Part shown: positions 3,002-40,561 of the stretch, in pieces
How the letters are laid out: the number at the start of each line of letters is the position of its first letter
Position numbering within the stretch: the stretch's first letter is position 1
Assembly (NCBI RefSeq): GCF_044324875.1
Contig: NZ_CP172188.1
From: Escherichia coli
GTDB lineage: Bacteria > Pseudomonadota > Gammaproteobacteria > Enterobacterales > Enterobacteriaceae
Reading direction: 5' to 3' (one strand)
Length of the DNA stretch: 64,000 nt
Translations under genes and position numbers: made by a program
The notes under the pieces: model-generated
The model's input: the letters and a program-made list of their open reading frames with translations, nothing else
The model's database searches: none
What the model was told of the DNA's origin: nothing

Positions 3002-4180
3002 ATGTTAAGAGCGACAAAAGTACGCATATATCCCACTACTGAACAGGCTGAGTATCTCAATGCCCAGTTCGGTGCGGTACGTTTTGCGTACAATAAAGCT
3101 CTTCACATCAAAAAACATGCTTACCAGCGATACGGGGTGAATTTAAGTCCGCGCAAAGATTTAAAGCCGTTGCTGTCTATAGCGAAGAAGTCCCGTAAGT
3201 ATGCCTGGCTCAAAGAGTTTGATTCAATGGCATTGCAACAGGCAGTAATTAATCTTGATGCGGCATTTTCCAACTTTTTTAATCCGAAGCTGAAAGCACG
3301 GTTCCCGACGTTTAAACGTAAACACGGGAGACAATCGAGCTATCACTGCACCGGAATCAAGGTGCTGGATGATGCCATTAAGATCCCTAAACTGAATCTG
3401 CCGATAAAGGCGCGTATACACCGTGTAATTACGGGAAAAGTAACGAGCATAACAATTACTCGCAATGCCGCTGGGGAATATCACGCATCCATCCTTTGTG
3501 ATGACGGTATTCCCGCGCCAGAGAAACCCACGTATCTGGAAGAAGAAAAGATTACTGGTGTGGACATGGGATTAACAGATTATGCCATCAAATCGGATGG
3601 TAATAAGGTTGGTAATCCTCGTCATCTCATCAATGCCAGTCGTAATCTGCGACGCAAACAAAAAGCGTTATCCCGCAAGCAAAAGGGAAGCGCGAACCGT
3701 AAAAAGGCCAGAATCCGTCTGGCAGCGTTACACGAACGGGTGGCTAATGCCCGTGCTGATTTTCAACACAAGCTCTCTCGTGCAATTGTTGACGAAAACC
3801 AAGCGGTAATTGTCGAGACGCTGAAAACAGCCAACATGATGAAAAACCACAATCTGGCAAGAGCGATAGGTGATGCAGGCTGGCATAGCTTCATCACAAA
3901 GCTGGAGTACAAGGCAGCGGAAAAAGGCGTTCACCTGGTAAAACTCGACCAGTGGTTTGCCAGTTCGAAAACGTGCCATTGTTGTGGTTACAAAATGCCG
4001 GAAATGCCGCTTCATAAACGCATCTGGCGATGCCCTGAATGTGGAGCAGAGCACGACCGCGATATCAATGCGGCGCTCAATATCCGGCAAAAAGGAATAC
4101 TGGAACTAAAGGCGGCGGGACTCGTCGTTTCTGTCCATGGAGGCCAGCGTAAATCCGTCGAACAGACGGTAGCGGCCTGA
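3002..4180 (+). CDS. tnpB: TnpB (OrfB) RNA-guided nuclease of IS200/IS605
   Basis: 392 aa; C-terminal zinc finger CHCCGYK...CPECGAEHDRDINAALNI typical of TnpB/OrfB; divergent from tnpA. Confidence 0.9.
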   Translation: MLRATKVRIYPTTEQAEYLNAQFGAVRFAYNKALHIKKHAYQRYGVNLSPRKDLKPLLSIAKKSRKYAWLKEFDSMALQQAVINLDAAFSNFFNPKLKARFPTFKRKHGRQSSYHCTGIKVLDDAIKIPKLNLPIKARIHRVITGKVTSITITRNAAGEYHASILCDDGIPAPEKPTYLEEEKITGVDMGLTDYAIKSDGNKVGNPRHLINASRNLRRKQKALSRKQKGSANRKKARIRLAALHERVANARADFQHKLSRAIVDENQAVIVETLKTANMMKNHNLARAIGDAGWHSFITKLEYKAAEKGVHLVKLDQWFASSKTCHCCGYKMPEMPLHKRIWRCPECGAEHDRDINAALNIRQKGILELKAAGLVVSVHGGQRKSVEQTVAA

Positions 4181-5951: not shown

Positions 5952-6119
5952 ATGACTGTTCGCTACCTCAACTTTCAAATCAAGAACATTACTGGCGGTT
6001 GCTATGACTGGTTTGTCACTCTCGGAAAAGAAGTGATTACCGGGAAGCTGGATGAAGTGAAAGCTAAAGCAATGGCCTACGCCTGCAAGCAAGCCCGGAA
6101 GAAATCCGCCAAAGCATAA
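5952..6119 (+). CDS. small hypothetical protein (55 aa)
   Basis: ATG preceded by GGGGAG; overlaps (ATGA) a 29-codon ORF at 5866..5955 that has an AAGGAG RBS; below the 60 aa ORF-track cutoff. Confidence 0.3.
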   Translation: MTVRYLNFQIKNITGGCYDWFVTLGKEVITGKLDEVKAKAMAYACKQARKKSAKA

Positions 6120-6431
6120 AATACTGACTGTTGCGCCCTGGCATTATCGTGGGGTATATTTCTACGGCACCTTAGAAAAACGGGTGCCGGGATTGGAACC
6201 CCGGATAATGCAAAAGGCGACACAGACGCCGAAAGCGTCTTTTCTTGTGTCATGCCATCGCACAGCCATACGTAGCGTTTAGCTCAGAGATCAATGGTAG
6301 TGCTGGCTGGGCTGCCGAAAGGCAGGCCGGTTCCCTTTTGCGCCGGTAGTTCCAACCCAGTCAGTGCTACCGCCATTGAGATTGGAACCTCACGCGGTAG
6401 CTCCTTAAATTAGCAAAAGGAGGCTGCCAAT

Positions 6432-6647
6432 ATGGCTACTATCCCTACCCCAACTCATTCTGAATTTATCTGGCGTTTCTATTCCTGCCAAAAACACCTG
6501 TATATCTGCGTCATGGCTGCAACCGAAGCAGAAGCTCGTTCATACCTTCCTGAAGAACCCTGCATTTTTGCCGCACGCTTCACTCTTGATGCGATGGAGA
6601 TCCTCAATTACTGGAATCTGCCAATGAACTGCGTGGAGGTGCACTGA
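6432..6647 (+). CDS. icd: Icd-like small protein (host cell division inhibitor family)
   Basis: About 71 aa, paralogous to two other copies in the window (EFIWRFYSC...AATEAEARS...CVEVH); stop overlaps the ant start. Confidence 0.7.
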   Translation: MATIPTPTHSEFIWRFYSCQKHLYICVMAATEAEARSYLPEEPCIFAARFTLDAMEILNYWNLPMNCVEVH

Positions 6648-7588
6648 TGAATCTGTCCATCTCTCAAAAAGCGACAATGACCAGCATTGAGATCGCGGAA
6701 CTGGTAGGAAGTCGCCAAGATAGTGTGAAGAGAACTATCGAAACACTGGCTAAAAAGAGTGTGATCCAATTTCCACAATCTGTGGAAATTGAAAATAAAC
6801 AATCAGTTGGCCCTCGTCGATTTTCCAAGGCTTACATCTTTGAAGGCGAACAAGGCAAGCGCGATAGTATCATTGTCGTCGCACAGCTCTCTCCGGAATT
6901 CACCGCCCGGCTGGTGGACCGCTGGCGCGAACTGGAGAATGCCAGGGGACCGTTAAAATCAAAAGCCGAAATCCTGGCTGAAATGGCGCAAATGCATCTT
7001 GAGCATGAACGCCGGATCAACGCCGTAAATGCCCAGGTAGCCGAGGTATCAGCACAAGTATCGATGGTCGCTGAAACACTCGAGCAAATAAAGAAAGGCA
7101 ATATGCCGGAAGGCTACATTGGCTACCGCCAGCTGGCGGCGAAATGCGGCCTGACTGAAGCCAAATGTCGCAACCTGGTTAACGCTTACCGGATACCCAC
7201 TGATACGCATGAGTTTTTGACTCCCGACGGTTTGCTTGCGCGACGCTCAATTGTGGCCCTGGCCCCCTTCCGGAAAGCCTTTAAGCAGGTTATGTCGGAG
7301 GCAGAACCACGCAACAAACGCTGGTATCATCCAAAGATGGGGATGTTTCAGGCAATCCACCATCCTGTGCCTGAAAGTCCAAAGGCAAACCTGTCGTTGC
7401 ATACCGCCAGAGAGAGGATTAAAACAGGGTATGCAATCGTATGCCGTCGAGCATCTTGGCCTGAAGGTGTATGGGTATGGCCCGAAGGTGGATCACGAAA
7501 GCACTGGCGCACTATCCGGGATGGGAAAATCCATGCGATTGATTTAGCTCCAGAGGATGTTGTTGCTACGGACTGGATTGTTAGTTAA
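6647..7588 (+). CDS. ant: Rha-family phage antirepressor (Ant), copy 1
   Basis: N-terminal Rha-like TSIEIAELVGSRQDSVKR; C-terminal ~200 aa near-identical to the copy at 39035..40033. Confidence 0.8.
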   Translation: MNLSISQKATMTSIEIAELVGSRQDSVKRTIETLAKKSVIQFPQSVEIENKQSVGPRRFSKAYIFEGEQGKRDSIIVVAQLSPEFTARLVDRWRELENARGPLKSKAEILAEMAQMHLEHERRINAVNAQVAEVSAQVSMVAETLEQIKKGNMPEGYIGYRQLAAKCGLTEAKCRNLVNAYRIPTDTHEFLTPDGLLARRSIVALAPFRKAFKQVMSEAEPRNKRWYHPKMGMFQAIHHPVPESPKANLSLHTARERIKTGYAIVCRRASWPEGVWVWPEGGSRKHWRTIRDGKIHAIDLAPEDVVATDWIVS

Positions 7589-7596
7589 TTACTGTT

Positions 7597-7618
7597 GCCC
7601 CGGCCTGTCCGGGGCTTT
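7597..7618 (+). terminator. rho-independent terminator hairpin after ant
   Basis: gccccggcctgtccggggc stem-loop followed by TTT; same hairpin after the other two ant copies. Confidence 0.6.
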
Positions 7619-7647
7619 AACTACTAAATAACCGGATTCTCCGCACG

Positions 7648-7932
7648 ATGAAGAAAATAGATTTCACTTACTCTGCTGCCACAATCCAGCGACGTTTCAG
7701 TCTCATAAGGGAAGTGGAACTATCAAAAAACTGGTATCAAATTCTACTGGATGAAGAGTTTTCACTGATGGTTATAGCAGAAAAATTGGCTATGCCGAAT
7801 GACCGGCACAAGGTCATAGCCAGCCTGGATCTGGTGACAAACAGATACTGGGAATCCGAGGAACTACTTGAAGTTGGCTTGATACGCGAGATGATAGAAC
7901 AGGCTGTTCCCCTCCACTTACAGCAACCATAA
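7648..7932 (+). CDS. hypothetical protein (94 aa)
   Basis: ORF at the start of a low-GC island; no recognisable motif. Confidence 0.4.
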   Translation: MKKIDFTYSAATIQRRFSLIREVELSKNWYQILLDEEFSLMVIAEKLAMPNDRHKVIASLDLVTNRYWESEELLEVGLIREMIEQAVPLHLQQP

Positions 7933-9530: not shown

Positions 9531-10286
9531 TTAACGCGTTTTTTCGCTGCTTTCCACTACCGGGGGATTTTTCCTCAGTGACTCTCCCTGAAGGACCACT
9601 CGGTGTGAGTTATGTACCAGTCTGTCCAGGATGGCATCTGCTGTTGTTGGGTTCTCCATCAGACCATGCCATTTATCTACCGGGAACTGGCTTACCACTA
9701 TCGTGCTGCTTTGTCCGTAACGATCCTCTATGAGCTCCAGAAGGTCATTACACTGGGCGTTACTTAACTGTTCCAGCCCCAGATCGTCCAGGATTAGAAC
9801 CTGTATTTTTTGCAACTGTTTCAGATATTTCAGCCAGCTGCCATCAACACGTCCCTGAGCCAGTTGTTCCAGTAATCGCCCGGTTCTACAGTACCGGACG
9901 CTGTGTTTCTGTCGACATGCCTGTTCGCCCAGCGCATTGGCTATCCAGCTCTTGCCACATCCTGTCGGACCGGTTATCAGCAGGTTTTTCCTGTGGGTTA
10001 TGTAGTGGCCGTTCAGCAGTTCTCTCATCTGTTCAGCCCGCAGACCTCTTGAGGCCGGATAGCGCAGCCCTTCCGGTGTTGCCTGGTATTTCAGGCCGGC
10101 ATTTTTTCTCAACCGTGCCACACGGCTGTTTTCCCTGCTCAGAAGCTCGTCATCAACCAGCAGCGTCAGCCTTTCCTCGAACGACAGTTCGTCGTAGGTC
10201 TGAGGCGTTTCCCGCTGCCGTATCAGGCTCCCGGCCATCGCCGGGAGTTTCAGTTGGGTCAGTTTGTTTAACAGGTTATCACTCAT
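9531..10286 (-). CDS. istB: IS21 helper ATPase IstB
   Basis: Walker A GPTGCGKS, DnaC-like; ORF 9531..10529 but the start matching family length is ATG at 10286 (MSDNLLNKLTQLKLP). Confidence 0.85.
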   Translation of the reverse strand: MSDNLLNKLTQLKLPAMAGSLIRQRETPQTYDELSFEERLTLLVDDELLSRENSRVARLRKNAGLKYQATPEGLRYPASRGLRAEQMRELLNGHYITHRKNLLITGPTGCGKSWIANALGEQACRQKHSVRYCRTGRLLEQLAQGRVDGSWLKYLKQLQKIQVLILDDLGLEQLSNAQCNDLLELIEDRYGQSSTIVVSQFPVDKWHGLMENPTTADAILDRLVHNSHRVVLQGESLRKNPPVVESSEKTR

Positions 10287-10302
10287 ACTGTTGTTCCTTC
10301 TG

Positions 10303-11838
10303 TCAGTGGTAGTAGCCCGGACCACGCAGGTTTTCATGCTCTGAAGCATATGCCGGATGTTGTTCGCCCTGGCGGGATAATGGAAGCTCCAGGTTCTCCC
10401 GATGGTGACGCAGCAGATTGTCGATAAAGCGTCTGTCAGGGGCGTTATAGTGCAGGGCAACGTAACAGGCCTTTTCCAGCCGTTCCGGGCCGTATTTTTT
10501 CTGAAGTGCCAGCAGCCCCAGAACTGCACGATAAGCCAGTTCCGGATGGGGTTTTGCCTTCAGCATGGATTCAACCACCCGGCCTGTGGACGGGCCCGTA
10601 CGTTTTCCCTGCTCGATCAGGCGTTCCGGTGTCCATGTCCCGTGCTGCCGGTGGCGCTCTGGCATGTGAAGCGGATTGGTTGTGTGTTTATATTCATGTG
10701 TGCTGCGCGGATGTTGCGCCACACACTGCCCCTTGTGCCAGAGCTGTACCACCGACTGCCCCGCCTTCAGTGACAGACGCTGACCGACCAGTTCGTGTGG
10801 AACGGAGTACCAGTGACGGGCATATTCAACGTGGTAGTCAGGGCCAACCTTCACAGCTTTGTATTCCGTGTATTCATAAGGTGCCAGAGGCAGCGGAGAG
10901 AGTGCTGGCGCATCCAGTATGCGGAAGCGTTCTGCACGGGTTTGATTGCCGTACCCCTTCATTGGCCGGTTATTCATGTCTGTCAGTAACTCCCTAAGGC
11001 GCGCATTCAGCGCCCTGAGCGTGTGGAAGGTTTCATTACGGATGCGGGCAAGAAGCCATCGTTCAACGATGAGGACGCCGTTTTCTGCTTTTGGTTTATC
11101 TTTAGGTTTGCGTGGTCGGGCCGGGATGATAACCGTGCCATAGTGCTCAGCCAGTGCCTGATAACTGTCGTTGATGACAGGCTCATATCGATCGGCCTTT
11201 TTCACTGCGCTTCTGAGGTTATCGGGGATGAGCAGCTTCGGTACGCCGCCCAGGAAGGTCAGGCAACGGCTGTGGGCATTTAACCATGACATCATGTCCT
11301 GACCTTCGCACGCTTCAACGTAGGTATAGTTGGACGCCCCCATTACGGCCACGAAGATTGCCACGCGGCGTATCTCACCGGTGTCCGGATTAATAACAGG
11401 AACCGTAGGACCACAGAAGTCGATAAAAAGCTTTTCGCCGGCACGATGCTCCTGGCGCATGGAGAGACGTCGCGTTTTTTTCCACTCCCGGTAGCAACGG
11501 CAGAAGTGCGAGTATCCCATCGCTTTGTTACCCGCCTGTGCCTTGTATTCCATCCACAACAGTTGCCGCGTCACACCTGGTTTTCTCATTTCCGTATCGA
11601 AGTACAACATGTCAGGCATTACAAGCTCTGATGCAAAGGTGTCTTTGGGCGGAAAAATGAGTTTCTCCAGCGTGTCATGGGATATATCAGCAGGTAATGG
11701 CCATGACAGAGAAGAGGCTTTGAAGCGGGCAAGAACCTCAAAAACGGTTGAGGCGCTGATGTGTAACGTCAGTCCGATACAACGGTTAGTCAGCTTCTTG
11801 TCGAACTTGAGCTGAAGGATCTTAAAACAGGTTTCCAT
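10303..11838 (-). CDS. istA: IS21 transposase IstA
   Basis: DDE transposase with N-terminal HTH; ORF 10303..11949, likely start ATG at 11838 (METCFKIL). Confidence 0.8.
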   Translation of the reverse strand: METCFKILQLKFDKKLTNRCIGLTLHISASTVFEVLARFKASSLSWPLPADISHDTLEKLIFPPKDTFASELVMPDMLYFDTEMRKPGVTRQLLWMEYKAQAGNKAMGYSHFCRCYREWKKTRRLSMRQEHRAGEKLFIDFCGPTVPVINPDTGEIRRVAIFVAVMGASNYTYVEACEGQDMMSWLNAHSRCLTFLGGVPKLLIPDNLRSAVKKADRYEPVINDSYQALAEHYGTVIIPARPRKPKDKPKAENGVLIVERWLLARIRNETFHTLRALNARLRELLTDMNNRPMKGYGNQTRAERFRILDAPALSPLPLAPYEYTEYKAVKVGPDYHVEYARHWYSVPHELVGQRLSLKAGQSVVQLWHKGQCVAQHPRSTHEYKHTTNPLHMPERHRQHGTWTPERLIEQGKRTGPSTGRVVESMLKAKPHPELAYRAVLGLLALQKKYGPERLEKACYVALHYNAPDRRFIDNLLRHHRENLELPLSRQGEQHPAYASEHENLRGPGYYH

Positions 11839-29846: not shown

Positions 29847-30019
29847 GAACATAAACAATAAAATAAATCATCAAAAATTTGATGTTGATCTTCCATGTTT
29901 TCAGGCTTATATTCACGCCGTTGCAGCAAATTCTGCGACCGGGTTTAGCAGCCTGAATGTACATGCGGACAACCGCAGATATCCGATATTGCGGTATTTT
30001 TGTGTCCGTAAAACCATGT

Positions 30020-30110
30020 TACGCCCGAATTATGGTGGGGCGTGATGGGGAGGCTTCGGCCTGCTGGTTTCATGTACGCCAGTCTGCTAACCCCGTCACG
30101 TCCTGCCACC
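30020..30110 (+). ncRNA. c4-like antisense RNA region of immunity module 2 (boundaries approximate)
   Basis: Element ctgctaa (about 30083) is complementary to ttagcag at 29945 and 30116 in the icd leader; compensatory changes in module 3. Confidence 0.45.
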
Positions 30111-30160
30111 CGTTTAGCAGCGGGTAGCAGGTTGTTAAACCTGTACATGAGGCCGTAACT

Positions 30161-30385
30161 ATGGTTAATGCCAATCCTTGCTCACGTCCAGAATTCATCT
30201 GGCGTTTTCACTCCCTGCAAAAACACTGCGATCACTTCGCAATTGCCGCAACTGAAAAAGAAGCCCGTTCTCTGATCCCTGATCAGTATGGTGTTCTTAC
30301 TGGTCGTTTCTCTACTTCCCCACAACCAAACACTAATCCCTGGTATCGCAATATTACCAATCCCGGAATTGCGGAGGCACACTGA
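30161..30385 (+). CDS. icd: Icd-like protein, module 2
   Basis: Paralog of the 6432 and 40248 copies; stop overlaps the ant start. Confidence 0.7.
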   Translation: MVNANPCSRPEFIWRFHSLQKHCDHFAIAATEKEARSLIPDQYGVLTGRFSTSPQPNTNPWYRNITNPGIAEAH

Positions 30386-31305
30386 TGGATATCTGCATTC
30401 TTGAAAAGCCATCAATGACCAGCATTGAGATCGCGGAGCTGGTGGGAAGTCGTCCAGATAACGTAAAAATATCAATAGAGCGCCTGGCTAAATCTGGAGT
30501 TATTCAACTTCCTGCATTGCAGGTTTTCGAAAAAATCAATAACTTAGGACTACGCCGTAGTGTCGAGGCTTACGTCTTCGAAGGCGAGCAAGGCAAACGA
30601 GACAGCATTATTGTCGTTGCGCAGCTCTCTCCCGAATTCACCGCCCGGCTGGTGGACCGCTGGCGCGAACTGGAAGAACAAGTACGCCAGCCGTTGACCG
30701 AAATAGAGATGATCGCCGCAATGGCTGCAAATGCAGTTCAGCAGCAAAAGCGGCTTCATGTTGTTGAGTCAAAGGTTAGCCAGGTTGCTGAAACCGTCGA
30801 GCAGATCAAGAAGGGCAACATGCCAGAAGGTTACATTGGCTACCGCCAGCTGGCGGCGAAATGTGGCCTGACTGAAGCCAAATGTCGCAACCTGGTTAAC
30901 GCTTTCCGGATTCCCACCGATACGCATGAGTTTTTAACTCCAGATGGTTTGCTTGCGCGACGCTCCATTGTGGCCCTGGCCCCCTTCCGGAAAGCCTTTA
31001 AGCAGGTGATGTCGGAGGCAGAACCACGCAACAAACGCTGGTATCATCCGAAGATGGGGCTGTTTCAGGCAATCCATCATCCTGTGCCTGAAAGCCCAAA
31101 GGATAATCTGTCACTACATACCGTCAGAGAGAAGATCAGGACTGGATACGCAACAGTGTGTCGTCGTTCTTCCTGGCCTGAAGGTATATGGGTGTGGCCC
31201 GAAGGTGGATCACGAAAGCACTGGCGCACTATCCGGGACGGGAAAATCCATGCTATTGATTTAGCGCCAGAGGATATTGTTGCTACGGACTGGATTGTTA
31301 GTTAA
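30385..31305 (+). CDS. ant: Rha-family antirepressor (Ant), copy 2
   Basis: Rha-like N-terminus; C-terminal domain homologous to the other two copies. Confidence 0.8.
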   Translation: MDICILEKPSMTSIEIAELVGSRPDNVKISIERLAKSGVIQLPALQVFEKINNLGLRRSVEAYVFEGEQGKRDSIIVVAQLSPEFTARLVDRWRELEEQVRQPLTEIEMIAAMAANAVQQQKRLHVVESKVSQVAETVEQIKKGNMPEGYIGYRQLAAKCGLTEAKCRNLVNAFRIPTDTHEFLTPDGLLARRSIVALAPFRKAFKQVMSEAEPRNKRWYHPKMGLFQAIHHPVPESPKDNLSLHTVREKIRTGYATVCRRSSWPEGIWVWPEGGSRKHWRTIRDGKIHAIDLAPEDIVATDWIVS

Positions 31306-39034: not shown

Positions 39035-40033
39035 TTAACTAACAATCCAGTCCATAGCAATAACATCCTCTGGAGCTAAATCAATAGCATGGATTTTCCC
39101 GTCACGGATGGTGCGCCAGTGCTTTCGTGATCCACCTTCGGGCCATACCCATACACCTTCAGGCCAGGAAGAACGACGACACACTGTTGCGTATCCAGTC
39201 CTGATCTTCTCTCTGACGGTATGCAGTGACAGATTATCTTTTGGGATTTCCGGTAAAGGATGATGGATTGCCTGAAACAGCCCCATCTTCGGATGATACC
39301 AGCGTTTGTTGCGTGGTTCTGCCTCCGACATAACCTGCTTGAAGGCTTTCCGGAAGGGGGCCAGGGCCACAATGGAGCGTCGGGCAAGCAAACCATCTGG
39401 AGTTAAAAACTCATGCGTATCGGTGGGAATCCGGTAAGCGTTGACAAGGTTGCGGCATTTGGCTTCAGTCAGGCCACATTTCGCCGCCAGCTGGCGGTAG
39501 CCAATGTAGCCTTCCGGCATATTGCCTTTCTTGATTTGCTCGACGGTTTCAGCGACTTTGGACACTTGTGCCGATACCTCGGCTACCTGGGCATTTACGG
39601 CGTTAATCCGGCGTTCATGTTCAAGATGCATTTGCGCCATTTCAGCCAGGATTTCGGCTTTTGATTTTAGCGGTGAGTGCTCCGGTATTAATTGCTTAAT
39701 ACGAAAATAGCTGTTTACCAGCTCACGTTGCACTTGCCAGGCCAGATCGTCATTGAATGACTTAACAATCATTAGATAACCGGACTCAGTGAACACGCGC
39801 AAACCGCGCGGGGGGACATTAATTCCAAAAGTGTCAAAAACGCCCTTTTCAGAGTAATCAATAAGATAGGTATCTACACCATCAACAAAACGGTGCTTGT
39901 TACGATGGAAAGTTGTTTTAGCTAATCCTTTTGGTCGCTCGTGCACCTCATCAATCATCTCAAAGGTCACTACACGCTGATTTTTATATTCGAGAGTCGG
40001 GAATGGTTTGTTATTGATAGTTACTGCGTCCAT
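39035..40033 (-). CDS. ant: antirepressor (Ant), copy 3, with a different N-terminal domain
   Basis: C-terminal ~200 aa near-identical to copy 1; N-terminal 130 aa unrelated to Rha (KilA-N/ORF6N-like); ATG 40033 overlaps the icd stop. Confidence 0.8.
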   Translation of the reverse strand: MDAVTINNKPFPTLEYKNQRVVTFEMIDEVHERPKGLAKTTFHRNKHRFVDGVDTYLIDYSEKGVFDTFGINVPPRGLRVFTESGYLMIVKSFNDDLAWQVQRELVNSYFRIKQLIPEHSPLKSKAEILAEMAQMHLEHERRINAVNAQVAEVSAQVSKVAETVEQIKKGNMPEGYIGYRQLAAKCGLTEAKCRNLVNAYRIPTDTHEFLTPDGLLARRSIVALAPFRKAFKQVMSEAEPRNKRWYHPKMGLFQAIHHPLPEIPKDNLSLHTVREKIRTGYATVCRRSSWPEGVWVWPEGGSRKHWRTIRDGKIHAIDLAPEDVIAMDWIVS

Positions 40034-40248
40034 TAATGCACCTCCACGCAGTTCATTGGGCGGTTCCAGTAGGTCAAAACGTCCAGGGCATCGAGTTTGA
40101 AGCGAGCCGCAAAAATGCACGGATCTGTAGGAAGAAATGAACGCGCTTCAGCCTCAGTAGCTGCCATTACGGTGATATAGGTGTGTTTTGTGCAGGAATA
40201 AAAGCGCCAGATGAATTCTGGACGTGAGCAAGGATTGGCATTAACCAT
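40033..40248 (-). CDS. icd: Icd-like protein, module 3
   Basis: Paralog (MVNANPCSRPEFIWRFYSC...CVEVH). Confidence 0.7.
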   Translation of the reverse strand: MVNANPCSRPEFIWRFYSCTKHTYITVMAATEAEARSFLPTDPCIFAARFKLDALDVLTYWNRPMNCVEVH

Positions 40249-40299
40249 AGTTACGGCCTCATGTACAGGTTTAACAACCTGCTACCCGCTGTCAAACAG

Positions 40300-40390
40300 G
40301 TGGCAGGGCGTGACAGGGTTGACAGACTGGCGTACATGAAACCAGCAGGCCGAAGCCTCCCCATCACGCCCCACCATAATTCGGGCGTAA
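40300..40390 (-). ncRNA. c4-like antisense RNA region of immunity module 3 (boundaries approximate)
   Basis: Paralogous to 30020..30110, with the pairing element changed to ctgtcaa and both target sites changed to ttgacag. Confidence 0.45.
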
Positions 40391-40561
40391 CGTGGTTTAC
40401 GGACACAAAAATACCGCAATATCGGAAATCTGCGGATGTCCGCATGTACATTCAGGCTGTCAAACCTGGTCGCAGAATTTGCTACGACGGCGTGAATATA
40501 AGCCTGAACATCTGGAAGATCAACATCAAATTGTTGATGATTTATTTTATTATTCATGTTT

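Follow-up and report, generated by a model that had tools for sequence, protein, structure and literature searches.

A probable P1 immI-type antisense immunity module of the IsrK/C4 variety, with its own recognition sequences, on a D6-like plasmid prophage of Escherichia coli

A stretch of Escherichia coli DNA of 64,000 nucleotides (nt) from contig NZ_CP172188.1 (RefSeq assembly GCF_044324875.1), hereafter called the window, was analysed for an antisense-regulated icd-ant operon. The region from 6131 to 7615 is very probably a complete immunity module of the P1 immI type, in its IsrK/C4 variety, on a D6-like plasmid prophage of the P1 family. The c4-icd-ant operon type has been known since the 1990s, and both RNA families of the module, C4 and isrK, are already in Rfam; the module is an ordinary, uncharacterised new case of this type with a specificity of its own. 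Over 6100-7650 the E. coli plasmid pRHB39-C21_3 has 100% identity to the window and phage D6 (orf82-85) has 96%, and matches to this region occur in 450 plasmid records. Because of these matches the window was assigned to a D6-like, P1-family plasmid prophage. The presence of a second c4-icd region had been noted earlier in a D6-like prophage (PMC6799933).

Membership in the family was established by covariance-model search and structure prediction, both proposed as checks in a preliminary description made from the sequence of the window, and both bore the assignment out. The C4 antisense RNA gene scored 76.7 bits against a gathering score of 45 (E=3e-13, model positions 1-87 of 87), and the isrK match upstream of it scored 59.4 bits against 50 (E=3.6e-10, full length 1-77 of the model). 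The order and spacing of isrK then C4, both at gathering level, are as expected for the family; of 20 related loci, 14 have isrK upstream of C4 at a distance of 20-70 nt. From alignment to the annotated 77-nt C4 of P1, the mature RNA is predicted to span about 6296-6374 (79 nt). Folded by itself, C4 reached a minimum free energy (MFE) of -46.4 kcal/mol and gave the family structure, a long closing stem around two hairpins and a single-stranded linker. The IsrK-like RNA is laid out as a 5' hairpin, a second hairpin with the element a1 in its loop, the single-stranded element b1 and an intrinsic terminator.

Relatives were gathered by two routes, the Icd protein, which gave 80 loci, and a C4 sequence pattern, for which 80 loci were listed in IMG/VR; in the loci of the pattern set C4 was placed with a purpose-built covariance model (65 hits). 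With the three C4 modules of the window and P1, this gave a family set of 55 distinct sequences of C4 plus flanks. Across the 55 sequences 97.4% of the cells of the C4 fold were paired, with double changes at 17 pairs; shuffles gave 80.8%, and sliding of the partners gave 34-54%.

The specificity elements of this C4 are b' and a', each of which has an exact complement both upstream (b1 and a1) and downstream (b2 and a2). The position of b2 in the module corresponds to that of b2 in P1. Duplex folding of whole C4 against whole flanks was uninformative, ignoring intramolecular structure and returning long spurious duplexes, and was replaced by exact-complement searches restricted to loop and linker. 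In the resulting test, an exact complement of at least 7 nt to each C4 was sought in its own flanks and in those of loci whose specificity differs. Cognate complements were found at a1 in 55 of 55 sequences, at a2 in 52, at b2 in 46 and at b1 in 35; the non-cognate rates were 0.8%, 0.0%, 1.0% and 2.3%, respectively. The 55 C4 loci comprised 13 a types and 42 b types. The analysis itself showed the complementarity and its covariation among relatives, as well as family membership and structure.

Covariation was also seen at close range, among variants of the module's own type. In these, GCAAAAGG is replaced by GUCAAAGG jointly at b1, b' and b2, or UUGGAAC by UUGAGAC jointly at a1, a' and a2. The a' of phage D6 is GUCUCAA, with matching changes at a1 and a2. 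When the 280-nt leader of D6 (locus L001, 2561-2840) was compared with window positions 6160-6439, about 11 differences were counted, and six of them make up the coordinated change from GGAAC to GAGAC at a1, a' and a2. By sequence comparison this is a natural triple compensatory switch of specificity, and covariation at three sites is evidently the signature of a working antisense address code. One further variant, L032 (IMG/VR UViG_2778261639_000014, about 1211-1512), appears to be a natural recombinant with an a1 of the GAGAC type and an a' and a2 of the GGAAC type, and its upstream decoy is mismatched to its own C4 at the a site.

The Rfam scan at gathering thresholds found three C4 RNAs in the whole window, the highest score being that of the module's C4 at 6290-6377. 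In the other two, module 2 (29907-31305, plus strand) and module 3 (39035-40501, minus strand), c4-a1b1 matches stand in place of isrK. The preliminary description had called the module's leader unrelated to those of modules 2 and 3. For primary sequence this is borne out, the identity over a global alignment being 55%, against 94% between modules 2 and 3, but it does not extend to homology, all three leaders carrying a C4 above the Rfam gathering score. The a/b specificities are UUGGAAC/GCAAAAGG for the present module, UUAGCAG/GUACAUGA for module 2, UUGACAG/GUACAUGA for module 3, UUGACAG/GUUAGUGA for P1 and UUAGCAG/GAUUGUGA for P7. Modules 2 and 3 share b and differ in a; the a of module 2 is of the P7 type and that of module 3 of the P1 type, and their b matches neither P1 nor P7. 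Judged on these elements, the a/b pair of the module is orthogonal to those of the window's two other C4 modules and of P1, P7 and D6, and the module should therefore answer to its own C4 only. An independent antisense specificity, as had been suggested earlier, is thus present, but it is carried by b' and a', which match the module's own a1, b1, a2 and b2 and not the targets of modules 2 and 3, and not by the elements that had been named for it. One plasmid prophage would thus carry three C4-guarded antirepressor modules whose a/b pairs all differ, though modules 2 and 3 share b, and among natural variants a or b is exchanged at all three sites together, which makes this a clear natural example of short RNA address codes diversifying phage immunity.

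The reported icd-ant pair proved to be real by its family matches (Table 1) and by the overlap of the ant start with the icd stop in ATGA at 6644-6647. The first ORF (open reading frame) is annotated Icd-like in both D6 and pRHB39-C21_3, and orf82 of D6 is annotated 'putative anti-repressor'; the second, with its Rha domain, is a putative antirepressor. A stem-loop after ant is a possible operon end and went unreported by the terminator scan because its T run is short. The module had been introduced as divergent, which holds for its leader; its proteins are closer to those of the other modules than that word implies. Ant is 76% identical to that of module 2 over its full length and 90.5% identical to that of module 3 over the C-terminal 222 residues, the N-termini being unrelated, and Icd is 77% identical to that of module 3. 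The three Ant ORFs of the window appear from these comparisons to be mosaic.

Table 1 Features of the module and its leader, in window coordinates.
Feature	Coordinates	Strand	Basis or description
Putative promoter-like site for the IsrK-like/C4/icd/ant transcript	6131..6160	+	read from sequence
IsrK-like small RNA, a1/b1 'decoy' element	6167..6245	+	Rfam RF01394 isrK
a1 UUGGAAC	6193..6199	+	exact 7-nt complement of a'; in 8-nt loop AUUGGAAC of second IsrK hairpin
b1 GCAAAAGG	6210..6217	+	exact 8-nt complement of C4 b' loop; single-stranded, before terminator
Intrinsic terminator of IsrK-like RNA, AGACGCCGAAAGCGTCT then TTTTCTT	6224..6245	+	terminator scan; 3' hairpin of isrK model
C4 antisense RNA gene	6290..6377	+	Rfam RF01695
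39-codon ORF, PGAP 'ash family protein'	6294..6413	+	Pfam Phage_ASH PF10554, E=9e-8
b' CCUUUUGC	6334..6341	+	in 12-nt loop of C4 hairpin 2; pairs with b1 and b2
a' GUUCCAA	6349..6355	+	single-stranded linker from hairpin 2 to closing-stem 3' arm; pairs with a1 and a2
Alternative hairpin	6366..6401	+	outer stem 6366-6373:6394-6401, inner stem 6377-6380:6389-6392
a2 UUGGAAC	6382..6388	+	just 3' of C4; 7-nt complement of a'
Predicted hairpin sequestering the icd ribosome-binding site, GGUAGCUCCUU 6396-6406 with AAGGAGGCUGCC 6417-6428	6396..6428	+	fold prediction
b2 GCAAAAGG	6413..6420	+	8-nt complement of b'; overlaps icd Shine-Dalgarno AAGGAGG 6417-6423
icd-like ORF, 71 aa	6432..6647	+	NCBIfam NF033153 phage_ICD_like, E=3.3e-13
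Antirepressor-type ORF, 313 aa, Rha N-terminal domain	6647..7588	+	Pfam Phage_pRha, E=8.6e-6
G+C-rich stem-loop after ant, GCCCCGG CCTGT CCGGGGC then TTTA	7597..7615	+	read from sequence

The promoter-like site consists of TTGCGC (6131-6136), an 18-nt spacer and TATATT (6155-6160), the spacer being 17 nt if the -10 element is taken as GTATAT (6154-6159); the predicted transcription start is near G6167. TTGCGC and the position of the -10 element recur in divergent relatives (TTGCGC-N17-TATGCT, L048 type). At one locus, L118 (805-892), the Rfam matches to isrK and c4-a1b1 overlap on a single stretch. The two look like variants of a single element, though isrK is outside the C4 clan CL00128. Leaders of the P1 type (L003, which is P1, at about 375-405; window 29960-30010) have a terminator-like hairpin and U run (CCGCAGAUUUCCGAUAUUGCGG UAUUUUUGU) between b1 and C4, for which reason P1 may also make a short a1/b1 RNA analogous to IsrK.

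Two ORFs, identified by eye from their translations, flank the module region. One of 392 aa (3002-4180, plus strand) resembles a TnpB of the IS200/IS605 type, and one of 332 aa (9531-10529, minus strand) resembles an IstB helper of the IS21 type. Plasmid pRHB39-C21_3, otherwise identical, is without the TnpB-like insertion in the upstream region.

A short inverted repeat near icd, given in the preliminary description with an arm at about 6374, is real though slightly displaced: GCTACCGC occupies 6366-6373, and its exact reverse complement GCGGTAGC occupies 6394-6401, 31 nt upstream of the icd ATG at 6432. Counted over both strands of the window, the 8-mer occurs five times against 1.35 expected, a count reached in none of 100 shuffles. 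Contrary to what had been proposed, GCTACCGC is not a specificity element; it makes up the outer 3' arm of the closing stem of C4, with one overhang base in addition. The further partial pairing claimed with GCCGGTAG (6342-6349) amounts to a 6-nt complement, CGGUAG/CUACCG, which is not conserved. Among the 55 distinct C4 loci this match was found only in the present sequence type (two entries, the window and one locus with identical C4 and leader), the others having 2-4 nt, so that GCCGGTAG was rejected as a third partner; its complementarity is best treated as chance.

The repeat itself can form an alternative to the C4 fold. Inside its outer stem an inner stem, UGAG/CUCA, closes an 8-nt loop, AUUGGAAC, which holds a2 and has the same sequence as the loop that displays a1 upstream. 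The 5' arm shares 7 nt (6366-6372) with the C4 closing stem, and the C4 fold and the alternative hairpin are therefore mutually exclusive. Segment 6366-6401 folds at -18.9 kcal/mol, and the equivalent hairpin is the MFE structure of the local segment in about 50 of the 55 family members, with different stem sequences. In a MAFFT alignment not fitted to structure, 83.2% of its cells are paired, against 69.0% in shuffles (none of 500 as high) and 34-54% when the partners are slid by 1-3 columns; double-change cells number 98 against 34 in shuffles, and the covariation score is 0.368 against 0.166. The mean energy of the arm duplexes is -15.0 kcal/mol for cognate, -11.1 for non-cognate and -8.6 for shuffled arms. 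Columns common to the C4 closing stem and the alternative hairpin show three-way consistent states, for example A-U-A, G-C-G and C-G-C. On this comparative evidence GCTACCGC and GCGGTAGC form a real alternative hairpin that covaries throughout the family, and it may be a previously undescribed conserved structural detail of the C4/IsrK family, the older P1 literature being unchecked on this point. If confirmed, and if absent from that literature, it would extend a 30-year-old paradigm in a modest but real way, and could account for a coordination of C4 maturation with target presentation.

How often the hairpin would form depends on the context folded. At equilibrium the full C4 stem is favoured in most relatives (median probability P of 0.85, against 0.02 for the alternative hairpin). 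For the module type folded without the ribosome-binding site (RBS) the two are unusually close to balance, with P 0.44 for the C4 fold and 0.30 for the hairpin. When the icd RBS is included, the downstream arm prefers the Shine-Dalgarno (SD) region as a third partner with P about 0.99. The hairpin predicted to sequester the RBS has the 5' half of b2 in its 10-nt loop and, in the context 6290-6446, pair probabilities of 0.89-1.00, bar one pair that alternates between G6422 and G6423. The SD of the module is predicted to be unpaired with a probability of 0.11; shuffling the upstream sequence raises this to 0.36, and 3% of the shuffles are as paired. Of 44 leaders, 36 have an SD that is paired to a greater extent than its shuffled controls, the mean unpaired probability being 0.32 against 0.43. 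As a conserved helix, SD sequestration was rejected and is a trend only; its partners differ by lineage, and it is absent in P1-type leaders. The fold predictions make plausible a hairpin layer of control in which the SD is sequestered by part of the GCGGTAGC segment. As a hypothesis, the alternative hairpin may serve to display a2, or may work as a switch between folds.

These structures allow several other accounts of the module to be weighed. It had been suggested that icd-ant is under purely hairpin-based control, with no trans-acting antisense RNA and with GCTACCGC/GCGGTAGC as the regulatory element. The repeat is real and a strong SD-sequestering hairpin is predicted, but hairpins as the sole mechanism are very improbable beside complete C4 and IsrK-like genes above the curated Rfam thresholds, and they would leave unexplained the three-site covariation of the targets, both in the module type and in the family. 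Equally far-fetched is a role of the alternative hairpin in stopping the C4 precursor ahead of icd, as an intrinsic terminator or attenuator. At least five U follow the hairpin within 8 nt in 9 of the 55 relatives (for example GUUUUUCA), but the module has just three in eight and was unflagged by the terminator scan, and the role was rejected for want of U enrichment across the 55 loci (2.47 U per 8 nt, 2.09 expected). A four-segment structural switch, added to the antisense system and not replacing it, is a real possibility, albeit one with somewhat less than an even chance. Its segments would be the C4 5' arm (1), the C4 3' arm (2), GCGGUAGC(UCCUU) (3) and the icd SD region (4). With 1:2 formed and C4 folded or excised, 3:4 would form and hide the RBS; with segment 1 unavailable, 2:3 would form, free the SD and show a2 in its loop. 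Segment 1 could be unavailable through a ribosome starting at the C4 AUGG, through upstream pairing, or before the RNA folds, and through the switch icd-ant translation would respond in cis to whether C4 has folded or been processed. The switch would draw together the covariation of 2:3 on an alignment unfitted to it and its place as the local MFE structure, the three-way states at the shared columns, the near balance of C4 and 2:3 without the SD against the dominance of 3:4 with it, the pairing of the SD above shuffled controls, and the need of Gifsy-1 antirepressor translation for translation from an ORF at the C4 AUG. It sits less well with the full C4 stem being favoured in most family members, with 3:4 partners that vary by lineage, are missing in P1-type modules and form no conserved helix, and with an ORF from the C4 AUG that is inconsistently open; it rests wholly on thermodynamic prediction. 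That the segment after a2 acts as a cis-acting conformational relay, pairing either with the C4 3' arm (in three-way covariation with the 5' arm) or with the icd SD, is a tentative and rather doubtful proposal. If true, such a relay would make access to a2 and to the icd-ant RBS depend on how C4 folds, on its processing by RNase P or on translation that starts at the C4 AUG; it would be a structural switch on top of the P1 antisense circuit and would reconcile the P1 view, with its repressor, and the Gifsy-1 view, with its activator.

The stretch 6294-6413 might alternatively be a protein-coding Ash gene, or a translated dual-function RNA like orf45 of Gifsy-1. The ORF starts at the conserved C4 AUGG and ends 19 nt before the icd ATG, leading into icd and not straight into the antirepressor gene; its residues 1-38 match positions 49-87 of PF10554, and PGAP annotates it. 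In 45 of 57 relatives no stop codon interrupts the frame from the conserved AUGG through C4, and this frame is often that of the downstream ORF. In Gifsy-1, mutation of the first AUG of orf45 or introduction of a stop codon cut IsrK-dependent activation of anrP from 114-fold to 20-fold and 8-fold, respectively (PMC4825925). Conservation at the locus is nevertheless of the RNA kind, with compensatory changes at base pairs and with loops that vary in step with their targets; 12 of the 57 relatives have the frame broken, among them P1, where C4 is an established RNA; the other frames are open in 37 and 22 of the 57, the first nearly as often; and no clear SD precedes the AUG in the module. A coding role is therefore unlikely, and as a conserved coding frame the Ash ORF was set aside as a weak signal. 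The 'ash family protein' ORF is evidently a translation of the C4 gene and, by position, the probable counterpart of orf45. In L159, L085, L091, L126 and others the ORF from the C4 AUGG is open through C4, a2 and b2, and in many such enterobacterial relatives it enters the downstream icd-like ORF in frame (e.g. ...KEAAIMATVPT...). The two public records inspected, those of phage D6 and pRHB39-C21_3, are without annotation of a C4 or IsrK-like RNA; where C4 lies, D6 is annotated with a hypothetical orf84 that runs on the other strand (L001, 2478-2777, minus strand) and the PGAP record of pRHB39-C21_3 has an 'ash family protein' (L002, 2695-2814). Pfam PF10554 may have been built at least partly on translations of RNA genes of the C4/CI type.

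An antisense immunity module of the P1 immI type remains the preferred reading, and by analogy with known systems it would work as follows. A promoter near 6131-6160 would start transcripts at about 6167, most of which would probably end at the terminator at 6224-6245 and give an IsrK-like RNA of about 79 nt that shows a1 in a loop and b1 single-stranded. Read-through transcripts would carry C4 (6290-6377), from which, as in P1, a cut by RNase P at the 5' end and trimming at the 3' end would yield an RNA of about 79 nt. Pairing of a' with a2, and of b' with b2 on the icd SD, would block icd translation and, because ant starts on the icd stop codon, antirepressor synthesis along with it; Rho-dependent polarity would probably contribute, as in P1. 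Since it carries the same a and b sequences, the IsrK-like RNA could bind a' and b' of C4 and titrate it, as a decoy or activator, like IsrK in Salmonella Gifsy-1. The promoter, the RNA processing, the repression, the decoy role and any role of the alternative hairpin are inferences.

Several points weigh against this reading. The promoter-like site fell below the threshold of the consensus scan and is a poor match to the consensus (3/6 and 5/6). For promoter strength, terminator read-through, RNase P processing and repression the argument is one of analogy. When the leader is folded together with the icd RBS, the alternative hairpin is expected only seldom (P about 0.01), and a fold in which it is forced is 3.6 kcal/mol less stable than the MFE structure. 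The two paradigms also differ in emphasis, P1 having C4 as repressor and Gifsy-1 having IsrK as activator by way of an ORF from the C4 AUG, and either might prevail in the module.

In Gifsy-1 the isrK-orf45 (STnc1160)-anrP system likewise has an IsrK-type RNA that ends at a terminator of its own, and read-through leads into a structured RNA and on to an antirepressor gene; in the module the middle of the IsrK-like RNA is complementary to the downstream structured RNA (a1:a' and b1:b'). The IsrK-target pairs tested there are G28-C162 and G31-C159, and the orf45 AUG lies at +107 (Hershko-Shalev et al. 2016, PMC4825925). By position counting, not by alignment to Gifsy-1, these pairs fall at a1:a' and the orf45 AUG falls at the C4 AUGG. 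That work treats IsrK as an activator and leaves open the role of the processed downstream RNA (PMC4825925). Unlike Gifsy-1, the module has an icd-like ORF between the region of C4 and the Ash ORF and the antirepressor gene, and it lies on a plasmid prophage.

The immunity system of satellite phage P4 is cited by Hershko-Shalev et al. as a structural analogue of IsrK (PMC4825925). Its seqA-CI RNA-seqC arrangement shares with the module a processed leader RNA of the operon under control and target sites both upstream and downstream. The CI RNA of P4 causes premature transcription termination of the replication genes and is not known to occlude the RBS of an icd-ant operon.

Closest in layout is immI of P1 and P7 (c4-icd-ant1/2; Rfam RF01695, with c4-a1b1 RF03163). 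The module differs in its a and b specificities, in an upstream a1/b1 element that matches the isrK model and not c4-a1b1, in a leader only 55% identical to the P1-type leaders of modules 2 and 3, and in an antirepressor that is one Rha-domain ORF in place of Ant1/Ant2; it is also additional to two P1-like modules of that element, and no C1 operator was identified in it, no search aimed at one having been made. In the GenBank record of P1, a1 and b1 lie upstream, C4 has 77 nt, a2 follows 4 nt after its 3' end and b2 stands just before the icd start. The module has the same succession of a promoter (here putative), a1, b1, a terminator-like hairpin and a C4 of the same fold, with a2 directly 3' of C4, b2 on the icd RBS and icd coupled to the antirepressor. 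Common to both, too, is an alternative hairpin in which the C4 3' arm pairs with the segment that follows a2, and in each case the host element is a P1-family plasmid prophage.

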